NCBI RefSeq assembly: GCF_044324785.1
Contig: NZ_CP172127.1
DNA: 64,000 bases
From: Escherichia coli
GTDB taxonomy: Bacteria > Pseudomonadota > Gammaproteobacteria > Enterobacterales > Enterobacteriaceae
Direction: 5' to 3' (one strand)
Made by a program: the position numbers and the translations under genes. The notes below the pieces were generated by a model. It was not told the origin of the DNA. It did no database searches and saw nothing but the letters and a program-made list of their open reading frames with translations. Of this stretch, positions 16,318-25,000 are shown piece by piece (position 1 is the stretch's first letter; each line of letters opens with the position of its first letter).

Positions 16318-16841
16318 TGAACTGCACCCCAAATGTTGGACATAATCTGACATCTGAAGGTGCAGTTTATGAAACATTCATTTGAAGTAAAACTTGCCGC
16401 TGTAAATCATTACCTGGCTGGTCATGCAGGCATCATTTCTACGGCAAAACTCTTTCAACTTTCTCACACCAGCCTCTCACACTGGATTAATCTTTTTCTT
16501 CTTCACGGTCCTCGGGCACTGGATTGCAGACACAAGCGTAGCTATTCTCCTGAAGATAAACTTTGCGTGGTTCTTTATGCTCTCGGGCATTCTGAGTCTC
16601 TACCCCGGGTAGCTGCCCGGTTTAACATTCCCAGCCACAACACGGTTAAAAACTGGATAAAAGGCTACCGCAAATCTGGTAATGAGGCCTTTATCAGGCG
16701 CAGGAAGGAGAAAAGCATGACCCGTTCTGATGATACCCATGAAAACGAGGCAAACATGACGCCGGAAGAGATGAAGAATGAGCTGCGTTATCTTCGCGCA
16801 GAAAATGCATATCTGAAAGCCATGCAGGAGCATCTCCTGGA

Positions 16842-17749
<908 letters not shown>

Positions 17750-17780: not shown

Positions 17781-18626
17781 TTATTTTCCCGCCTCCGGGT
17801 GCGTATCAAACGCCGCCATCACCAGCGCTAACTCATCCACGGTAAAGCCATGTTTCGCATCATCCACCCCCAGACCAAACTGTTCCTGCATCACGGCATA
17901 TAACGACGCCACATCTGGTAGATTTCGCTGCTCCACCGCGTGCCCATTTTCATAATGGGTAAAATGAAAATTGGTCAGTGTCAGCTTGCCGCCGTCCGGC
18001 AAATGGCGGCACATCAGCAAATGATGGCGAAAATGCGACTGCGGCCAGTGCGCAGACCAGAAATTGCCCATTACATAATCGCTTTGTTGCTGCTCGCAGA
18101 GATCAAAACGGTACATCGACTGCCAGTGCTGATGATGATTAAACTGCAACACCCAATCATCACCCGCCTGTAACAACCGATACTCTCCGTGTGGCGTGAT
18201 CTGCACGAGATCGGGAACTAAACGAATCGGCGCGGTTAGCGTCTGTCCACCGAAACCGACATCAGCAATCCATTTTTCCCCTTCCAGTTCCACCAACAAC
18301 AAACGATGGGTGCGCGGCGGTAATGCTGGCGGATTTGATAACACTACGCGCCCTAACAAGCTGCGAACGTTAAACCCCAGCTCGCGTAACACCCGCTCAA
18401 ACACGCCATTCTGCTCAAAACAGTAACCGCCACGACGGGCTATCACCAGTTTCTCTTCCAGCGATTGATCATCAAGCTGTATTTCCCTCGGCAGCAAAAC
18501 GTCGAGATTTTCAAACGGAATGGTGCAATTGTGTTTCAGGTGCAATGCACGCAGCGTATCAATATTGGCCGCAGCAGCTCCCGACCAGTTAATACGGGCA
18601 AAATAATGATTCAGAATGGGCGTCAT
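17781..18626 (-). CDS. nhoA: arylamine N-acetyltransferase, 281 aa
   Basis: MTPILNHYFARINWSGAAAANIDTLRALHLKHNCTIPFENLD... Confidence 0.9.
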   Translation of the reverse strand: MTPILNHYFARINWSGAAAANIDTLRALHLKHNCTIPFENLDVLLPREIQLDDQSLEEKLVIARRGGYCFEQNGVFERVLRELGFNVRSLLGRVVLSNPPALPPRTHRLLLVELEGEKWIADVGFGGQTLTAPIRLVPDLVQITPHGEYRLLQAGDDWVLQFNHHQHWQSMYRFDLCEQQQSDYVMGNFWSAHWPQSHFRHHLLMCRHLPDGGKLTLTNFHFTHYENGHAVEQRNLPDVASLYAVMQEQFGLGVDDAKHGFTVDELALVMAAFDTHPEAGK

Positions 18627-18798: not shown

Positions 18799-19368
18799 AT
18801 GAGCCGATTTATCCCCGTCGAATTACACCATGCCAGCCGTCTGTTAAATCATGGCCCAACTATTTTGATAACAACTTTTGATGAAAAATCACAGCGACGT
18901 AATGTGATGGCTGCGGCCTGGTCGATGCCGGTAGAGTTTGAACCGCCACGTGTTGCGATCGTGGTAGATAAATCGACATGGACCAGGGAGTTGATTGAAC
19001 GTAACGGTAAATTTGGCATCGTTATCCCGGGCGTTGCAGCAACTAACTGGACGTGGGCGGTGGGAAGTGTGTCGGGGCGTGATGAAGATAAGTTTAATTG
19101 CTATGGTATTCCGGTTGTGAAAGGTCCGGTACTTGGTTTGCCTCTGGTCGAGGAAAAATGTCTGGCGTGGATGGAGTGTCGCCTGCTACCTGCGACTTCT
19201 GCGCAAGAAAAATACGACACACTGTTTGGCGAGGTAGTATCAGCAGCGGCAGACGCACGGGTATTTGTCGAAGGCCGCTGGCAGTTTGATGATGATAAAC
19301 TCAATACACTACATCATTTAGGTGCTGGCACGTTTGTTACCAGCGGCAAGCGAGTCACCGCGGGCTAA
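18799..19368 (+). CDS. yddH: flavin reductase-like protein, 189 aa (alternative upstream start 18751)
   Basis: MSRFIPVELHHASRLLNHGPTILITTFDEKSQRRNVMAAAWSMPV... Confidence 0.85.
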   Translation: MSRFIPVELHHASRLLNHGPTILITTFDEKSQRRNVMAAAWSMPVEFEPPRVAIVVDKSTWTRELIERNGKFGIVIPGVAATNWTWAVGSVSGRDEDKFNCYGIPVVKGPVLGLPLVEEKCLAWMECRLLPATSAQEKYDTLFGEVVSAAADARVFVEGRWQFDDDKLNTLHHLGAGTFVTSGKRVTAG

Positions 19369-19434
19369 AGAATCATATGCAGCAACCAAGTTGCTTAAGC
19401 AATGTTTCAATATGAGTTAAAAGCATATTTTATC

Positions 19435-19635
19435 TCACGATTGCATATTTTTAGTGAAGATTAATTTATCCTCACCAACATCATAGTAATTGCGTATTAT
19501 AGCTTCATTGATAAAGCCCTGTTTTGTATAAAATGCGCGGGTGGCACTAAAATCGATATGGCTGGAAGTCTCTACTAAAAGTAGTCTTGCGTGATTGGGA
19601 CAGGTCAAGAAAAAGCAGTTTTGCAGTTTTTTATT
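19435..19635 (-). pseudogene. remnant of a GNAT-family acetyltransferase (C-terminal motif only, no start codon)
   Basis: Minus-frame translation ...HIDFSATRAFYTKQGFINEAIIRNYYDVGEDKLIFTKNMQS* resembles the C-terminal motif of RimI-type GNATs; open frame bounded upstream by a stop. Confidence 0.3.
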
Positions 19636-19997
19636 TTAGGGCACAGTTGCGAAAATTGAATCCCTTATGGACTAATGTGAGAAAATCCCGAGGTATGACT
19701 GTTTTGATATAGTGGACAATCAAGCGTCTCGAATTAACAATGAATTTCAGGTGCCAAGCCTTACAATTTGTAGCATGACGGATATAGGACAACATTAGGA
19801 AATCGGACAGAAAATTCATCATAATAAAATGACAACTTATCTCTTTCTCTCACTTTCTGAGAAATTTCACAAAAGTATAAACTGAGCCAATATGCCTTTA
19901 TATATAAAAAATACTCATGTTTATTATTATCGGAAAAAGCCAAGATTTGATTAAGGTGTATTAGTCGCGACTTGATCTGACACTGAGCCCTGAAAGG

Positions 19998-20243
19998 TTG
20001 AGAGTTACCGGTTTTGATATGGGTGTCGAATCCTTATACAAAACACGGGTAACTCTCATGCTTCATACTACCAATCCCGTTATCAAACACAAAGCCAGTT
20101 TGCTCAATCTGGCTGAAGAACTCAGCAACGTATCAAAAGCCTGTAAAATCATGGGCGTTTCGCGTGATACGTTTTATCGTTACCGCGAACTGGCCGATGA
20201 AGGCAGGGAAAGATTACGAAAGCCCGCTCCCTGCAAGGACTGA
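19998..20243 (+). pseudogene. transposase N-terminal HTH fragment (IS481/IS3-like), truncated
   Basis: 81-aa ORF ...[34 protein letters not shown] matches the GxSRxTxYxWxxRY HTH pattern; 3' end overlaps the H-repeat transposase. Confidence 0.3.
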
Positions 20244-21287
20244 CGCCAGGTAGTTTCTGTCCATGGCTGCTTTTCGCATCTTACGTCTTAACCCTGCCTT
20301 GAATACCTTATCATTCGTTAAAATATTAATAGCGATGTGCCGTATCCCTGAAAATAATTCTGCTGCATTTCCTCTTCTTATTTTGCAGTCGTCTTCATTC
20401 ATTACCACGTCCAGACGCCAGTGCAGCTTATTCTCCACGTGCCAGTGATTTCGGATCGCTGTGGCGAACTTCTCAGCGGTTAAATCAGCAGAACTGATGT
20501 AATATCTGACCGTCATTTCTGGCTCTTTCTTTTGTTCTGCTATTATGGACCGAAAGGAGACTGCCACGCATAATTTCTTCAGTCCTTTCCATTCAAACGT
20601 GAAATCAATAAGTTCATCAGGGACATCGCAAACAATATGAAGACGGATTTCTTCTCTGCCTTGACTTTTTTCACTAATTGCGTAACTGTCATGCTCTGGA
20701 TTATTTAATTCTTTCAGTGGGAATTTTTCCTCAAAGGCTTTATTAAGCCGCCCCTGATTTCCTTTTACAGCGAATAAATAATCACCGCCCTGTTTTTGTA
20801 TCTTCTCTGCGATATCTTTCTGGCAACCCATCGCATCAGTTGTGATAATTTTTCCTTTAATATCCAGCATGTTAAGAAGTTCAGGGATAGCTGTGATCTC
20901 ATTGGATTTCTTATCCGTCCTGATCTGTCCGATGACAAGACTGTGCATTGTTGAGAACGCACTAATGACATGAATCGCTCCCCTGCGGCGACTCTTGTCA
21001 TAAGAATGCCGGAGCGTTTTTCCATCAATTGCAATAACGTCTTTATCATCTGAAGAATGGCAGTCACGCATCCCGTTAATAAAGCACTCGTGAAATTTTA
21101 CAGGACTGATACAGGATACAACTCTGGCAATGGTATCGTGAACAGGAATACCATTTTCAAAATCACCATATTGCTTCAAAAAATCGAGATGTGTTTCCCC
21201 AAAATCCTCTATATCTTCCCAGCATTCTGCACCAGAAATAACGGCACAAATAGTCAACAGTAGAATATCCGACAATTTATGTTCCAC
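20214..21287 (-). CDS. ISAs1-family (H-repeat-associated) transposase; frame extends to ATG at 21350 but is interrupted by an in-frame TAG at 21291..21293
   Basis: 357-aa ORF (V/M)[35 protein letters not shown]... typical of Rhs-linked H-rpt ORF-H; upstream in-frame MELKKLMEHISIIPDYRQA-TAG-K. Confidence 0.8.
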
Positions 21288-21630
21288 TTTCTAGGCTTGT
21301 CTGTAATCGGGGATAATAGAAATATGTTCCATCAATTTTTTCAGTTCCATTTTGTTCTCCTTAATTATGTAAGGAGTATTTGATCATGTATACGCAATAA
21401 AAAACAGCTTTAGGTAATAAGGAATATCTCAATTTTTAAACATAAAATGCGAATTATTTAGTACAAAAAGTGAACTTCTGATGATCTTTCCCTGCCCATT
21501 GGGTTCATTAAGATCAAGAATAATGGGAATATGCTCAAGAAGACTTTGAATGTTCACCAGACGTCCTTTTCTAATATATTTAATTATTTGGCGATTAAAT
21601 TTTAATCAAATCAACAAGGTAAAACCAAGA

Positions 21631-21660
21631 TTAAAGTTGTGATGATAATCACAACTTTAA
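21631..21660. terminator. perfect 13-bp inverted repeat (TTAAAGTTGTGAT-GATA-ATCACAACTTTAA), candidate terminator downstream of the Rhs immunity gene
   Basis: seen directly; on the minus strand it is followed by TCTTGGTTTT. Confidence 0.4.
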
Positions 21661-21696
21661 TGATCTTCCCCTGATTCCTCCAGTCCTTTTATTTGG

Positions 21697-22071
21697 TTAC
21701 TCTAATGGTTTTATTAATTGTAAATTTTTAAATGTCATGCTTAATAAGCCATCAGAAAAATAAAGAAAAAATTTATATATCCTTTTGTTTTTTAATTTCT
21801 TTATATACCCATTACTTATATTACCTGACTTGTGATTATCGATTAACTCAGCAGAATCCATAGCGAACACTAAATCATCTACATCAGAAAATTCAACTAT
21901 CATTTTTTCCCTAATGTTCTCATTTTTATAAATGTCAATAAATAACGTCATGTTAAAATGAGATTCTTTGAATGTCGTTTTTACTTCTAACAAAACCCCA
22001 TCATGCCAGTCAATTGAACTCACAATGTCAAAATCGCTCATTATATAATCTCCATTATCCGTTTTAATCAT
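21697..22071 (-). CDS. ydcD: Rhs-associated immunity protein (YdcD-like), about 124 aa
   Basis: [31 protein letters not shown]...; ATG (22071..22069) overlaps the Rhs stop TGA (22070..22068) as ATGA; no signal peptide; AT-rich. Confidence 0.7.
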
Positions 22072-25000
22072 GGAGTAACAACGTTTGCAGGTATTGACCA
22101 CCAAAGAGGTGGTGCAAGTGAAGGTATAAATCGAATCACTCTATATATAACATACCCTGCGCCAATTGTAGCACCAGTTGCAAGAGCCGCATCAGTAGTT
22201 GATAGCCCGGAGGTTTTGCATGACAGATCTTTACTTGGTTCTGGCTCGAAACCATATTTTTTTGCACATTTCTTAATGCTATTTGGTGCTGATGAGTAAT
22301 CCTCACCATGGGACATACCTCCAAATTCCCCCATTACACCACTCCCATTTTTACACTCCCAATGCAAATGTCTTCCGTCACCAACAGCATCGCCATCTAT
22401 TCGGATTCGACAACCTTTACCACAGTCCTTCCATTTTCCTGAAGTATGAGCTAATCCCAATGGATCAATCCATTGCACAGGATTGTTCATAACATAACTG
22501 TACGGGTTTATTCCCCCCGCCAGCCCTATCGGATCCTGGATGATATACCGCCCCTGCAACGGATCGTAGTACCGGTGACGGTTATAATACAGCCCCGACT
22601 CCTCATCGTGTTGCTGCCCAGGCAGACGGTAGGGCTGGTGCAGGTGATGCGGGTTTTCCTCATTCAGCAGGTTTCCCCACTCATCATACTCCCCGCTCCA
22701 CGCCGTATTGCCGTCTTCGCTGATGAGCGCCAGCGGCAGGCCCCGGTGGTCGCAGTGGTAAAGATGAACTTTTCGCGCCGGTGTGTATTCCGGCTCCACC
22801 TGTCTGGCCAGTTGCTCTACCGTCAGCCCGCACTGCGCAAGCCACGCCCGGCTTTCACTGCTCACGCGGTCTGCCCGGATTTCCCCCTCCAGCCTGTCCA
22901 GCATCCTCACAAGTTCTGCCGGGAACACCACACCGTGTCCGTTCTCGCTCCCTTCCTGCTGCAACTTCTCCGCCAGGCTCCGCCGCTGCGTTTTCTCCCG
23001 CTCGCCGTTGTCTGTTTCGATGCGGATGAGTGGTGTGAAGCTTCCCGGCTCGTATACCGTCTGGATACGTGTGCTGTCGGTCTGCACCGTCGTCAGGTGG
23101 TCGCCGTCCCAGCCGTACCACGTCACCTCCGGTTTACGCGACAGCGACATCCACCCCGTCAGGTCACGTACCCGCCGCCACACCCGTTTACCCGTCCGGC
23201 GGCCCAGCGGGTCGTAGAGGTAGCGGCTCTCCACCTGCGGCTCGCCATGCTGTATCCGCGTGTAGAACACCAGGCGGTGCTGGCTGTCGTAGTGGTAGTG
23301 GTGGGTCCGCTCGTCGTCCGTCCGTATCACACCCGCCGGGATGCGGTCCGTCTTCTCCGTCAGCCTGCCGTATTCATCGTGGCGGTAGACATAGTGCGCA
23401 TCCTCCGCGATGCGGTTATCCGGCCACACTGTGAGTGTACTGTCCGGGTGCAGCTCCGGGTCCGGCAGCCGGTTGCCCGCCGGGTCCGTGGCATACGGGA
23501 TGCGGATGTCCAGGTCCGGTGCGAGGGTGCGCACACTCTCCAGCCTGCCCGTGGCGCTGTAGCCGTATTCCCGCGTCTGTCGCGGGCCGCTGATGCGCAC
23601 CAGGTCGCCGTTGTCATTCCACCCGTAGTCACGGTCATACACCAGGCTGTTCAGGTGCTGGCTCTGTAACTGGCCTGCGGGGGTGTATGTGCTGGTCAGT
23701 TCGTATGCGGCATTACTGCCTGCCATGCTGCCGAAGCTGCGCACCGTCTCCCGGTGCAGCCTGTCCCGCGTATACTCGACCCGCGGCGTCCCGCCCAGCT
23801 TCATTCCCGCCAGGTAACCGCTGCCATACGTCAGCCACTCCACCGGCGGCAGGCTGTCCGGCGTGACGCGGTTTGCCAGCCCCTGCTCGTTGTATGCGTG
23901 TTTCGTCTCATGCTGCCACAGCAGTTCCCCCGTCTCCGGGTTCTCCACCGTCTGGCGTTCGCCGGTCAGGCGGCCTTTATCGTCATAGCCGTAGTGGACC
24001 GCCACACGGTGGCCTTCACTGATATGGCTGAGGGTGGTTAACCACCCGTGCTCATCATACTGCCACTGCTCTGCCGGGTCGCCGTTCACCGTCCGGTGCG
24101 TGATGCGGTCTGCTTCATCGTAGTACCACTGCGTGACCTGCCCCTCATCCTAGCTGCGGATGAGCTGCCCTGTGGCGCTGTACCGGTAACGCTGTGTCCT
24201 GCCATCAAAGCCGCGCTGCTCCGTCAGGCGGTCCAGCACATCGTAGGTAAATTCACTCCGGCTGCCGTTCTCGTTGGTCAGCACGGTGATGCGCCCGGCA
24301 GCGTCATACCCCATGCTGCGCGTCAGCCCGCCTTCCGTCACACTCACCGGACGCCCGCGTTTATCATATGCGATGGTGCTGCGTTTACCGTCCGGTGATA
24401 TCGTTGCTGTCAGGTCGCCTGCGGCACTGTACTCATAACGGGTTTCACGCCCCTGCGCATCCTTCTGCCCTGTCAGCCTGCCGCGGCTGTCATAGAGACT
24501 ATAAATACTGAGACCTTCCTCCCGGTGAACGGCGATTTGTTGACCGTACCGGTCATACTCATACCGCGTCATGTACCCCGAGCAGTCCGTGAAGGCCCGA
24601 AGCTGACCGTACCGGTTTCGCGTTATTCTCCGCGTTACCCCGATTCCGTCTTCCACCGCGCCGGGCAGGCTACTGCGGGGGGAGTCATAAAACCAGCGTG
24701 TAATGTTACCGTTGCGCGAGGTCTCTTCTGCCAGTCGGCCCTGACGGTCATATTTCCGGCTGCTGCGTAAACCATCCGGATATGTCACTGAAGTCAGTTG
24801 CAACTGGCTGTTATAGCCATACCACACCGTCCTGCCGTCCGGCAGTATCACTGAAGTCAGCTTTCCAGACGCCATATGCAGCCGGTTCACCGTCCGCCGC
24901 CCCGCCGCATCCGTCTGCGCCTTCAGCCTCCCCGCCTCATCATACTCGCTGCGGGTGATGCTCCCGTCCGCATGCTCCTTCTTCACCACCCGCTTCAGAC

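Follow-up and report, generated by a model that had tools for sequence, protein, structure and literature searches.

Probable multi-layered scar of gene and mobile-element remnants beside yddH at the distal boundary of an Escherichia coli Rhs element

The stretch of Escherichia coli DNA analysed here (64,000 nucleotides of contig NZ_CP172127.1, hereafter the window) includes the intact genes nhoA (17781-18626, minus strand) and yddH (18799..19368, plus strand), the latter encoding a protein of the flavin reductase family (Pfam Flavin_Reduct, 1.3e-21), and, on the far side of yddH, a Rhs element capped by an H-repeat. Between yddH, which is the conserved left anchor, and the H-repeat lies a junction of about 850 bases (19369-20243 with the overlapping ends), which we compared with other E. 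coli and with outgroups. Its GC content is 31-40%, versus about 50% in yddH. Ten other E. coli genomes made up the comparison set, and more intact states of each layer of the junction were found among them; every breakpoint given below was placed by alignment with eight strains, namely K-12, N3, 1190, 2013C-4282, UTME-7, 2014C-3075, CFT073 and AF40. Such an alignment with K-12 and other strains had been proposed in the initial annotation of the junction, and together with the outgroups it allowed the ancestral state, with pptA convergent to yddH, and the layers that followed to be reconstructed. In the RefSeq annotation of N3, which is near-identical to the window strain, yddH is found at equivalent coordinates. 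The window strain is not N3 itself, because an IS3-family element at 16360-17717, between yddE and nhoA (two ORFs, the second matching NCBIfam transpos_IS3 at 3e-89), is absent from N3, as it is from K-12 and the other strains examined. Across nhoA-yddH the identity to K-12 ranges from 83 to 100% in 100-nt segments, with the segments of 83% and 88% lying inside yddH; a clean recombination boundary in this interval was considered and rejected, as the profile is mosaic.

In K-12 MG1655 the order is rhsE'-ydcD-yncI'-ydcC(H-repeat)-pptA><yddH, with pptA and yddH convergent and 4 nt shared between them, and the pair is a predicted excludon (PMC12288877). The initial annotation had described K-12 yddH as being followed by pptA, which is right as to position and wrong as to orientation, pptA being on the opposite strand. 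It had also found no pptA in the window, and this is borne out. In a tblastn search of all 64 kb with K-12 PptA (77 aa) the best match had E=0.017 (an unrelated stretch of 34 aa with 26% identity, at 8443-8544), and blastn of the K-12 pptA region against the window returned noise only. The 64 kb hold no ORF for this 4-oxalocrotonate-tautomerase-like protein, though a decayed 3' relic of about 50 nt remains at 19369..19418 (minus strand), corresponding to approximately the last 16 codons, with the frame broken by a 2-nt indel. When the alignment is anchored at the yddH stop, the 3' ends of pptA from E. coli, E. whittamii, Escherichia sp. and E. albertii share 32-33 of the 50 nt with the relic, with z=8-10 and no equal among 500 shuffles; against K-12 pptA, none of 2,000 shuffles reaches the score. 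An unanchored local alignment of the 66-nt spacer, which separates the yddH stop from the stop of the gene remnant described next, with K-12 pptA is not significant (228 of 2,000 shuffles). This spacer occurs in all strains that share the haplotype of the window, and the relic within it is only about 65% identical to pptA. From the anchored alignment we infer that the spacer is a decayed vestige of pptA, left after replacement of the remainder of the gene; alternatively, it could represent a conserved yddH 3' flank that is not strictly a pptA remnant.

The expected slot of pptA, which would follow the yddH stop immediately on the minus strand, is occupied in the window by a fragment of a GNAT family N-acetyltransferase gene. 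The minus-strand frame at 19438-19632 is open over 65 codons and ends in FYTKQGFINEAIIRNYYDVGEDKLIFTKNMQS followed by a stop. A GNAT C-terminus without a start codon had been reported in it; the frame and its tail are confirmed, and just 51 of the 65 codons derive from the acetyltransferase, while the frame has no ATG but does have a mechanical TTG at 19606-19608. The last 51 residues agree at 49 positions (96%) with residues 105-155 of a 155-aa protein that is intact in UTME-7, and this defines a 3' remnant of codons 105-155 plus stop at 19435..19590 (minus strand). The intact protein exceeds the Pfam thresholds for Acetyltransf_7 (6.6e-10) and Acetyltransf_1 (5.6e-8), is weakly RimI-like below the NCBIfam cut-offs, and is annotated as a GNAT family N-acetyltransferase in UTME-7 and 2014C-3075. 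The GNAT profiles are matched by this intact parent only, the 65-aa window fragment by itself giving no Pfam match at E<=1; the superfamily assignment of the fragment thus follows from its identity to a parent which matches them. As the fragment begins at residue 105, and motif A (QRQGVG, approximately residues 83-88 of the parent), which binds the acetyl-CoA pyrophosphate, falls in the deleted part, the window holds a remnant of a GNAT member and not a functional one. The parent protein (WP_000470660.1; UTME-7, LHM10-1 and many draft genomes) is encoded at the same position and in the same orientation relative to yddH; the window differs from it in lacking codons 1-104 and the upstream region, which makes its copy a pseudogene fragment. 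No antitoxin-like ORF of at least 40 aa was found in the 456-bp gap upstream of the intact UTME-7 gene.

The missing part of the acetyltransferase gene was removed by a deletion of about 463 bp, whose junction zone lies at 19590..19599: positions 4900-5212 of the UTME-7 locus correspond to 19284-19596 of the window and positions 5676-6031 to 19594-19955, so that the gene has lost codons 1-104 along with about 150 bp of the DNA upstream. Of 5,426 complete E. coli genomes, 222 (~4%) match an 81-nt probe across this junction, in all cases on the chromosome and in single copy; hence the junction is an inherited lineage marker, present for example in E. coli 042. Beyond it, the non-coding segment at 19600..19760, which in intact strains lies downstream of a 211-aa ORF, is collinear with UTME-7, 2013C-4282 and AF40, and shows no Rfam match and no excess of promoters or terminators. 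It is followed on the minus strand by the 3' remnant of the 211-aa ORF itself (19761..19955; last 64 codons and stop), the window remaining collinear up to 19956. This remnant was overlooked in the initial annotation, which had counted two remnants where the junction holds four or five. The ORF is intact in 2013C-4282 (L003 3461-4096; WP_032184207.1), AF40 and 042, and its product bears the RefSeq names 'hypothetical protein' or 'aminopeptidase'. The intact protein has no match in NCBIfam and none in Pfam that exceeds a threshold; the sole Pfam match, RRM_occluded on the truncated UTME-7 allele (E=0.051), reaches 13.9 bits versus a cut-off of 30. We accordingly found no support in these profile libraries for the name 'aminopeptidase' that some alleles carry.

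At its truncated end the 211-aa ORF is joined to the left end of an IS481-family element. The heptamer ATTAAGG at 19950..19956, the would-be target duplication, is native to the 211-aa ORF in IS-free strains, and the element starts immediately after it at 19957..20203 (plus strand), comprising its left inverted repeat (19957-19982), the leader and transposase codons 1-49, beginning at the true transposase start, ATG 20058. In complete IS481-family copies of E. coli (e.g. L009 2501-3701, L021, L022) the left end is 98.8% identical to this stub; these copies are 1,201 bp long, with 26-nt inverted repeats (TGTATTAGTCGCGACTTGATCTGACA) and AT-rich 7-bp target duplications (ATTAAGG, TTTAATG, TATAATG), and the left end of the element, if not more of it, is found in about 3,000 of the 5,426 complete genomes. 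The full-length transposase homologue matches NCBIfam transpos_IS481 above cut-off (1.1e-86), and the 49-aa fragment, which includes the HTH, matches positions 2-39 of the same profile at 6e-06. What the window retains is 247 bp with a single inverted repeat; the right 954 bp, with the DDE domain and the right repeat, are gone, the breakpoint set against a complete copy falling at 20203/20204, where the H-repeat terminus begins. In N3 the interval 20058-20204 is annotated as a partial HTH protein without its C-terminus, an incomplete pseudogene. Since the ATTAAGG flank is native to the 211-aa ORF and fits the target preference of the family, the stub goes back to a true transposition. The complete copy of CFSAN018748, between a RelE/HTH pair and dgcI, resembles it closely: over the left 248 bp, which take in the inverted repeat and transposase codons 1-49, the two are 98.8% identical, and the ATTAAGG flank is the same, whereas the window has the left 20% only. 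Recombination from that copy, with which a 10-nt flank (TTGATTAAGG) is shared, was considered and rejected, as other copies duplicate similar AT-rich 7-bp sites.

The initial annotation had described in this region an 81-aa plus-strand ORF with an HTH resembling transposase N-termini, overlapping the stop of the H-repeat ORF. The ORF exists (19998..20243), has a winged HTH (Pfam HTH_29, 3.8e-12, residues 32-73) and overlaps by 30 nt the 3' end of the H-repeat ORF at 20214. The likeness to a transposase N-terminus is real, being that of the IS481-family left end, but the ORF does not stand as a single unit: it is a mechanical chimera, in which the IS481 leader and the 49 transposase codons are continued by 12 codons of read-through into the H-repeat terminus, and should not be called as a gene. 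The sole Rfam signal, psRNA2 (RF02349) at 19868-20055 on the minus strand, scores 49.7 bits, under the gathering threshold of 65. The well-aligned half of this match runs antisense to the left end and leader of the IS481 element, and the family also scores 37.5 bits on a complete IS copy (L009 2443-2600, minus strand); in these genomes psRNA2 may describe an IS end and not a free-standing sRNA.

The H-repeat (ISEc1) occupies 20204..21494 on the minus strand, 1,291 bp counted from its CAGGG terminus (CAGGGAAAGAT at 20204). It has the attributes of the ISAs1 family, namely a DDE transposase, terminal inverted repeats and a length of about 1.3 kb: the terminal arms, GGCAGGGAAAGAT at 20202-20214 and 21484-21496, complement each other perfectly, and the transposase ORF (20214-21350, minus strand) matches NCBIfam transpos_ISAs1 (3.7e-120) and Pfam DDE_Tnp_1 and DDE_Tnp_1_assoc. 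Codon 20 of the frame, at 21291-21293, is TAG where Trp is expected, which makes the element, too, a pseudogene; N3 has this defect as well, and the annotation of its orthologue records a pseudogene containing an internal stop. Beyond the element lies Rhs core sequence. A second sequence resembling an H-repeat end, GATCTTCCCCTG at 21655-21675, is found about 170 bp past the far end of the H-repeat, and is probably a stub of another copy, as with yncI'/ydcC in K-12. The whole corresponds to the distal end of RhsE in K-12, with the same site (ansP/yncG ... yddH-nhoA-yddE-narV), the same H-repeat cap and an identical terminus on the yddH side. It differs from RhsE in that K-12 has an intact pptA 99 bp from this terminus where the window has the GNAT-islet haplotype and the IS481 stub, and in that the Rhs element of the window is larger, with a core ORF of 1,420 aa.

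The distribution of these pieces places the window in a distinct haplotype. Among the 5,426 complete genomes surveyed, pptA is present at a coverage of at least 80% in 4,083 (75%) and the GNAT sequence in 660 (~12%), of which 433 are full-length, most of these having the frameshifted form of 467 bp that occurs in CFT073 and other B2 strains. Intact 155-aa GNAT genes convergent to yddH occur in UTME-7 and 2014C-3075 and in many draft genomes, the arrangement in the drafts always being ansP-yncG-(small ORFs)-(165 to 250-aa ORF)-GNAT><yddH-nhoA-yddE with no Rhs element. A YddH scan of species-representative genomes yielded 80 outgroup loci, taken with 4-kb flanks. In roughly half of them pptA lies within the flank, and in about 17 it directly follows yddH on the opposite strand; the outgroups with pptA include E. 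whittamii, E. albertii, other Escherichia spp., Citrobacter, Kluyvera, Kosakonia and Pluralibacter, and none of the 80 loci has the GNAT gene. On the basis of the outgroups, the 75% of E. coli, the relic and the GC content of the junction, pptA is the ancestral convergent partner of yddH, and the GNAT islet is an AT-rich replacement of most of pptA that took place long ago. The 'missing' pptA of the window, and of roughly a fifth of E. coli, is then an alternative haplotype and not an error of assembly or reading.

In the Rhs-free strains (UTME-7, L005 6830-8592; L010-L019) four to six small ORFs (~60-186 aa, with no Pfam matches) form a conserved AT-rich array that extends from yncG to the 211-aa ORF; in the window this array is replaced by the Rhs/H-repeat block (20204 to ~33575). 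The ORFs of the array are candidates for orphan genes of the immunity type, which they may turn out to be.

A further regularity emerges when the H-repeat terminus is compared across strains. Eight different sequences abut one and the same terminus, CAGGG[A/C]AAGATTACG, in nine genomes (window 20204; L002 3711; L003 4301; L004 8963; L006 5615; L008 5132; L104 2500; L105 4981), and the junctions form a nested series stepping towards yddH. Those of the GNAT haplotype are found in 042, 2013C-4282, AF40, 1190, the window together with N3, and 2014C-3075; those of the pptA haplotype are the K-12 junction already mentioned and that of BAA-2469, which lies within pptA and leaves 60 nt of it. Position 6 of the terminus is either A or C, and these two variants point to a pair of H-repeat lineages. 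In the window, the far side of the H-repeat is Rhs DNA and not the continuation of the IS481 element, and positions 6032-8618 of the UTME-7 locus have no counterpart, from which it follows that the DNA between the interior of the IS481 element and the H-repeat terminus has been deleted. Adjacent (nested) deletions are mediated by IS1, IS10 and IS903, and the present junctions resemble them in that the H-repeat end is exactly fixed and the outer endpoints vary across lineages. Junctions of this kind, constant at the IS and variable on the outside, are the classical signature of an IS-anchored adjacent deletion, and suggest that such deletions occurred repeatedly at this site. The difference from those systems is that the role of ISEc1 is read from the junctions, which fit recombination between two copies equally well: a local hop of the element followed by such recombination would give the same product.

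Taken together, these comparisons make it probable, at roughly four chances in five, that the region beside yddH, where the Rhs element has its distal boundary, is a multi-layered scar in which the leftovers of four genes or mobile elements were stacked by replacement, insertion and deletion in at least four separate events of ordinary genome wear. The suggestion of the initial annotation that successive insertions and deletions had left a scar here is therefore supported, with the breakpoints now located and more intact states of the layers at hand in other strains. The scar may have formed as follows. From the ancestral state of the Enterobacteriaceae, pptA><yddH, an AT-rich islet with several small ORFs, the 211-aa ORF and the 155-aa GNAT acetyltransferase gene would, in one E. 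coli lineage, have taken the place of pptA, of which about 50 nt were left. The deletion of about 463 bp would then have taken the promoter-proximal two-thirds of the GNAT gene together with the acetyl-CoA-binding motif, leaving 51 dead codons. In a third step the 1,201-bp IS481-family element would have entered the 211-aa ORF at about codon 147, at ATTAAGG, and in a fourth a deletion from base 247 of this element to the terminus of the Rhs-capping H-repeat would have fused the IS481 stub to the H-repeat end, either by an ISEc1-mediated adjacent deletion or through a local ISEc1 hop and two-copy recombination. The H-repeat transposase would later have gained its stop at codon 20. The anatomy, the breakpoints, the more intact states and the frequencies are observed, whereas the relative order of the second to fourth steps, which is tentative, and the deletion mechanism of the fourth are inferred. 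Among the 5,426 complete genomes the entire 1-kb arrangement is found only in N3 (CP031609, 99.9% identity), and none has the predicted intermediate, in which the 211-aa ORF would contain the IS481-family element in full.

It might be held instead that the junction arose by recent decay of a K-12-like arrangement, in which pptA beside the H-repeat was lost locally and the GNAT and HTH pieces were inserted later. K-12 does have ydcC, pptA and yddH in the same neighbourhood, and a short pptA-like relic does follow yddH in the window; however, the ~65% identity of that relic stands against 83-99% in the flanking yddH, and the spacer and the GNAT sequence are common to hundreds of genomes, including Rhs-free ones with an intact GNAT gene. 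Because they are so widely shared, the replacement is much older than this strain and unconnected with the H-repeat, and we regard recent decay as very improbable. Equally improbable is the proposal that the fragments are functional small genes, encoding a GNAT-tail peptide of 57-65 aa and a 61-aa HTH regulator or transposition inhibitor. In its favor, both frames are open, the HTH_29 domain is complete with its native ATG and leader, and in other IS families inhibition by truncated transposase N-termini is known. Yet the GNAT piece is without residues 1-104, including motif A, and without an ATG; the scan of the junction for promoters and terminators showed no excess over shuffles (promoter sites 1 versus 3.6); the N3 record has IS481 sequence at one place only, which leaves an inhibitor no target; RefSeq flags the HTH piece as an incomplete pseudogene; and the confinement of the arrangement to N3 and this strain gives no sign of selection. 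Judging from sequence, with the catalytic half and ATG missing from the one and the DDE domain from the other, neither remnant ORF would be expected to have a function.

The variety of H-repeat junctions could also reflect independent insertions of the H-repeat, or of a Rhs/H-repeat block, at different targets. ISAs1-family elements can transpose, the terminus variants CAGGGA.../CAGGGC... suggest more than one H-repeat lineage, and Rhs/H-repeat blocks gained by recombination could yield similar junctions; a hybrid course, with a local hop and recombination between two copies, is possible as well. An insertion should, however, be followed by the continuation of the interrupted target, and what lies beyond the H-repeat in every one of these genomes is Rhs-associated DNA. 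The UTME-7 sequence between the junction and yncG is absent, and the junctions are nested in one direction. We therefore consider independent insertions unlikely, if less so than the two preceding alternatives, and retain the layered scar with IS-anchored deletion as the preferred reading.

Literature searches returned no description of this polymorphism of the yddH flank. The kinds of element that compose it are already known, and erosion at a Rhs/IS boundary is ordinary, so that the matter is chiefly one of annotation, with three unannotated pseudogene fragments identified; the comparative series is at the same time a tidy example of Rhs boundary erosion through IS-anchored deletions. Two of the junctions can serve as lineage markers, that of the 463-bp deletion (~4% of genomes) and the IS481/H-repeat fusion (N3 lineage only). 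More tentatively, the slot 3' of yddH might be viewed as a natural 'deletion series' of ISEc1, and the exchange of pptA for GNAT as the convergent partner could alter the antisense (excludon) control that is predicted for the K-12 pair; we put this forward as a speculation which is rather doubtful at present. If true, the series would be field evidence that a long-enigmatic Rhs-associated IS actively remodels Rhs boundaries.

The Rhs side of the locus offers some further observations. The C-terminus of a Rhs core (22068-24089, minus strand) has the DPxGL boundary motif and a short C-terminal tip, and is overlapped by an AT-rich ORF of 135 aa (21697-22104, minus strand) with no NCBIfam match; the tip and this ORF are a candidate toxin-tip/immunity pair. 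Upstream, the Rhs core is apparently split into several ORFs. Just past the H-repeat of 2013C-4282 (L003 5578-7395) lies a group II intron with an ltrA reverse transcriptase and Rfam matches to Intron_gpII and to D1-D4.
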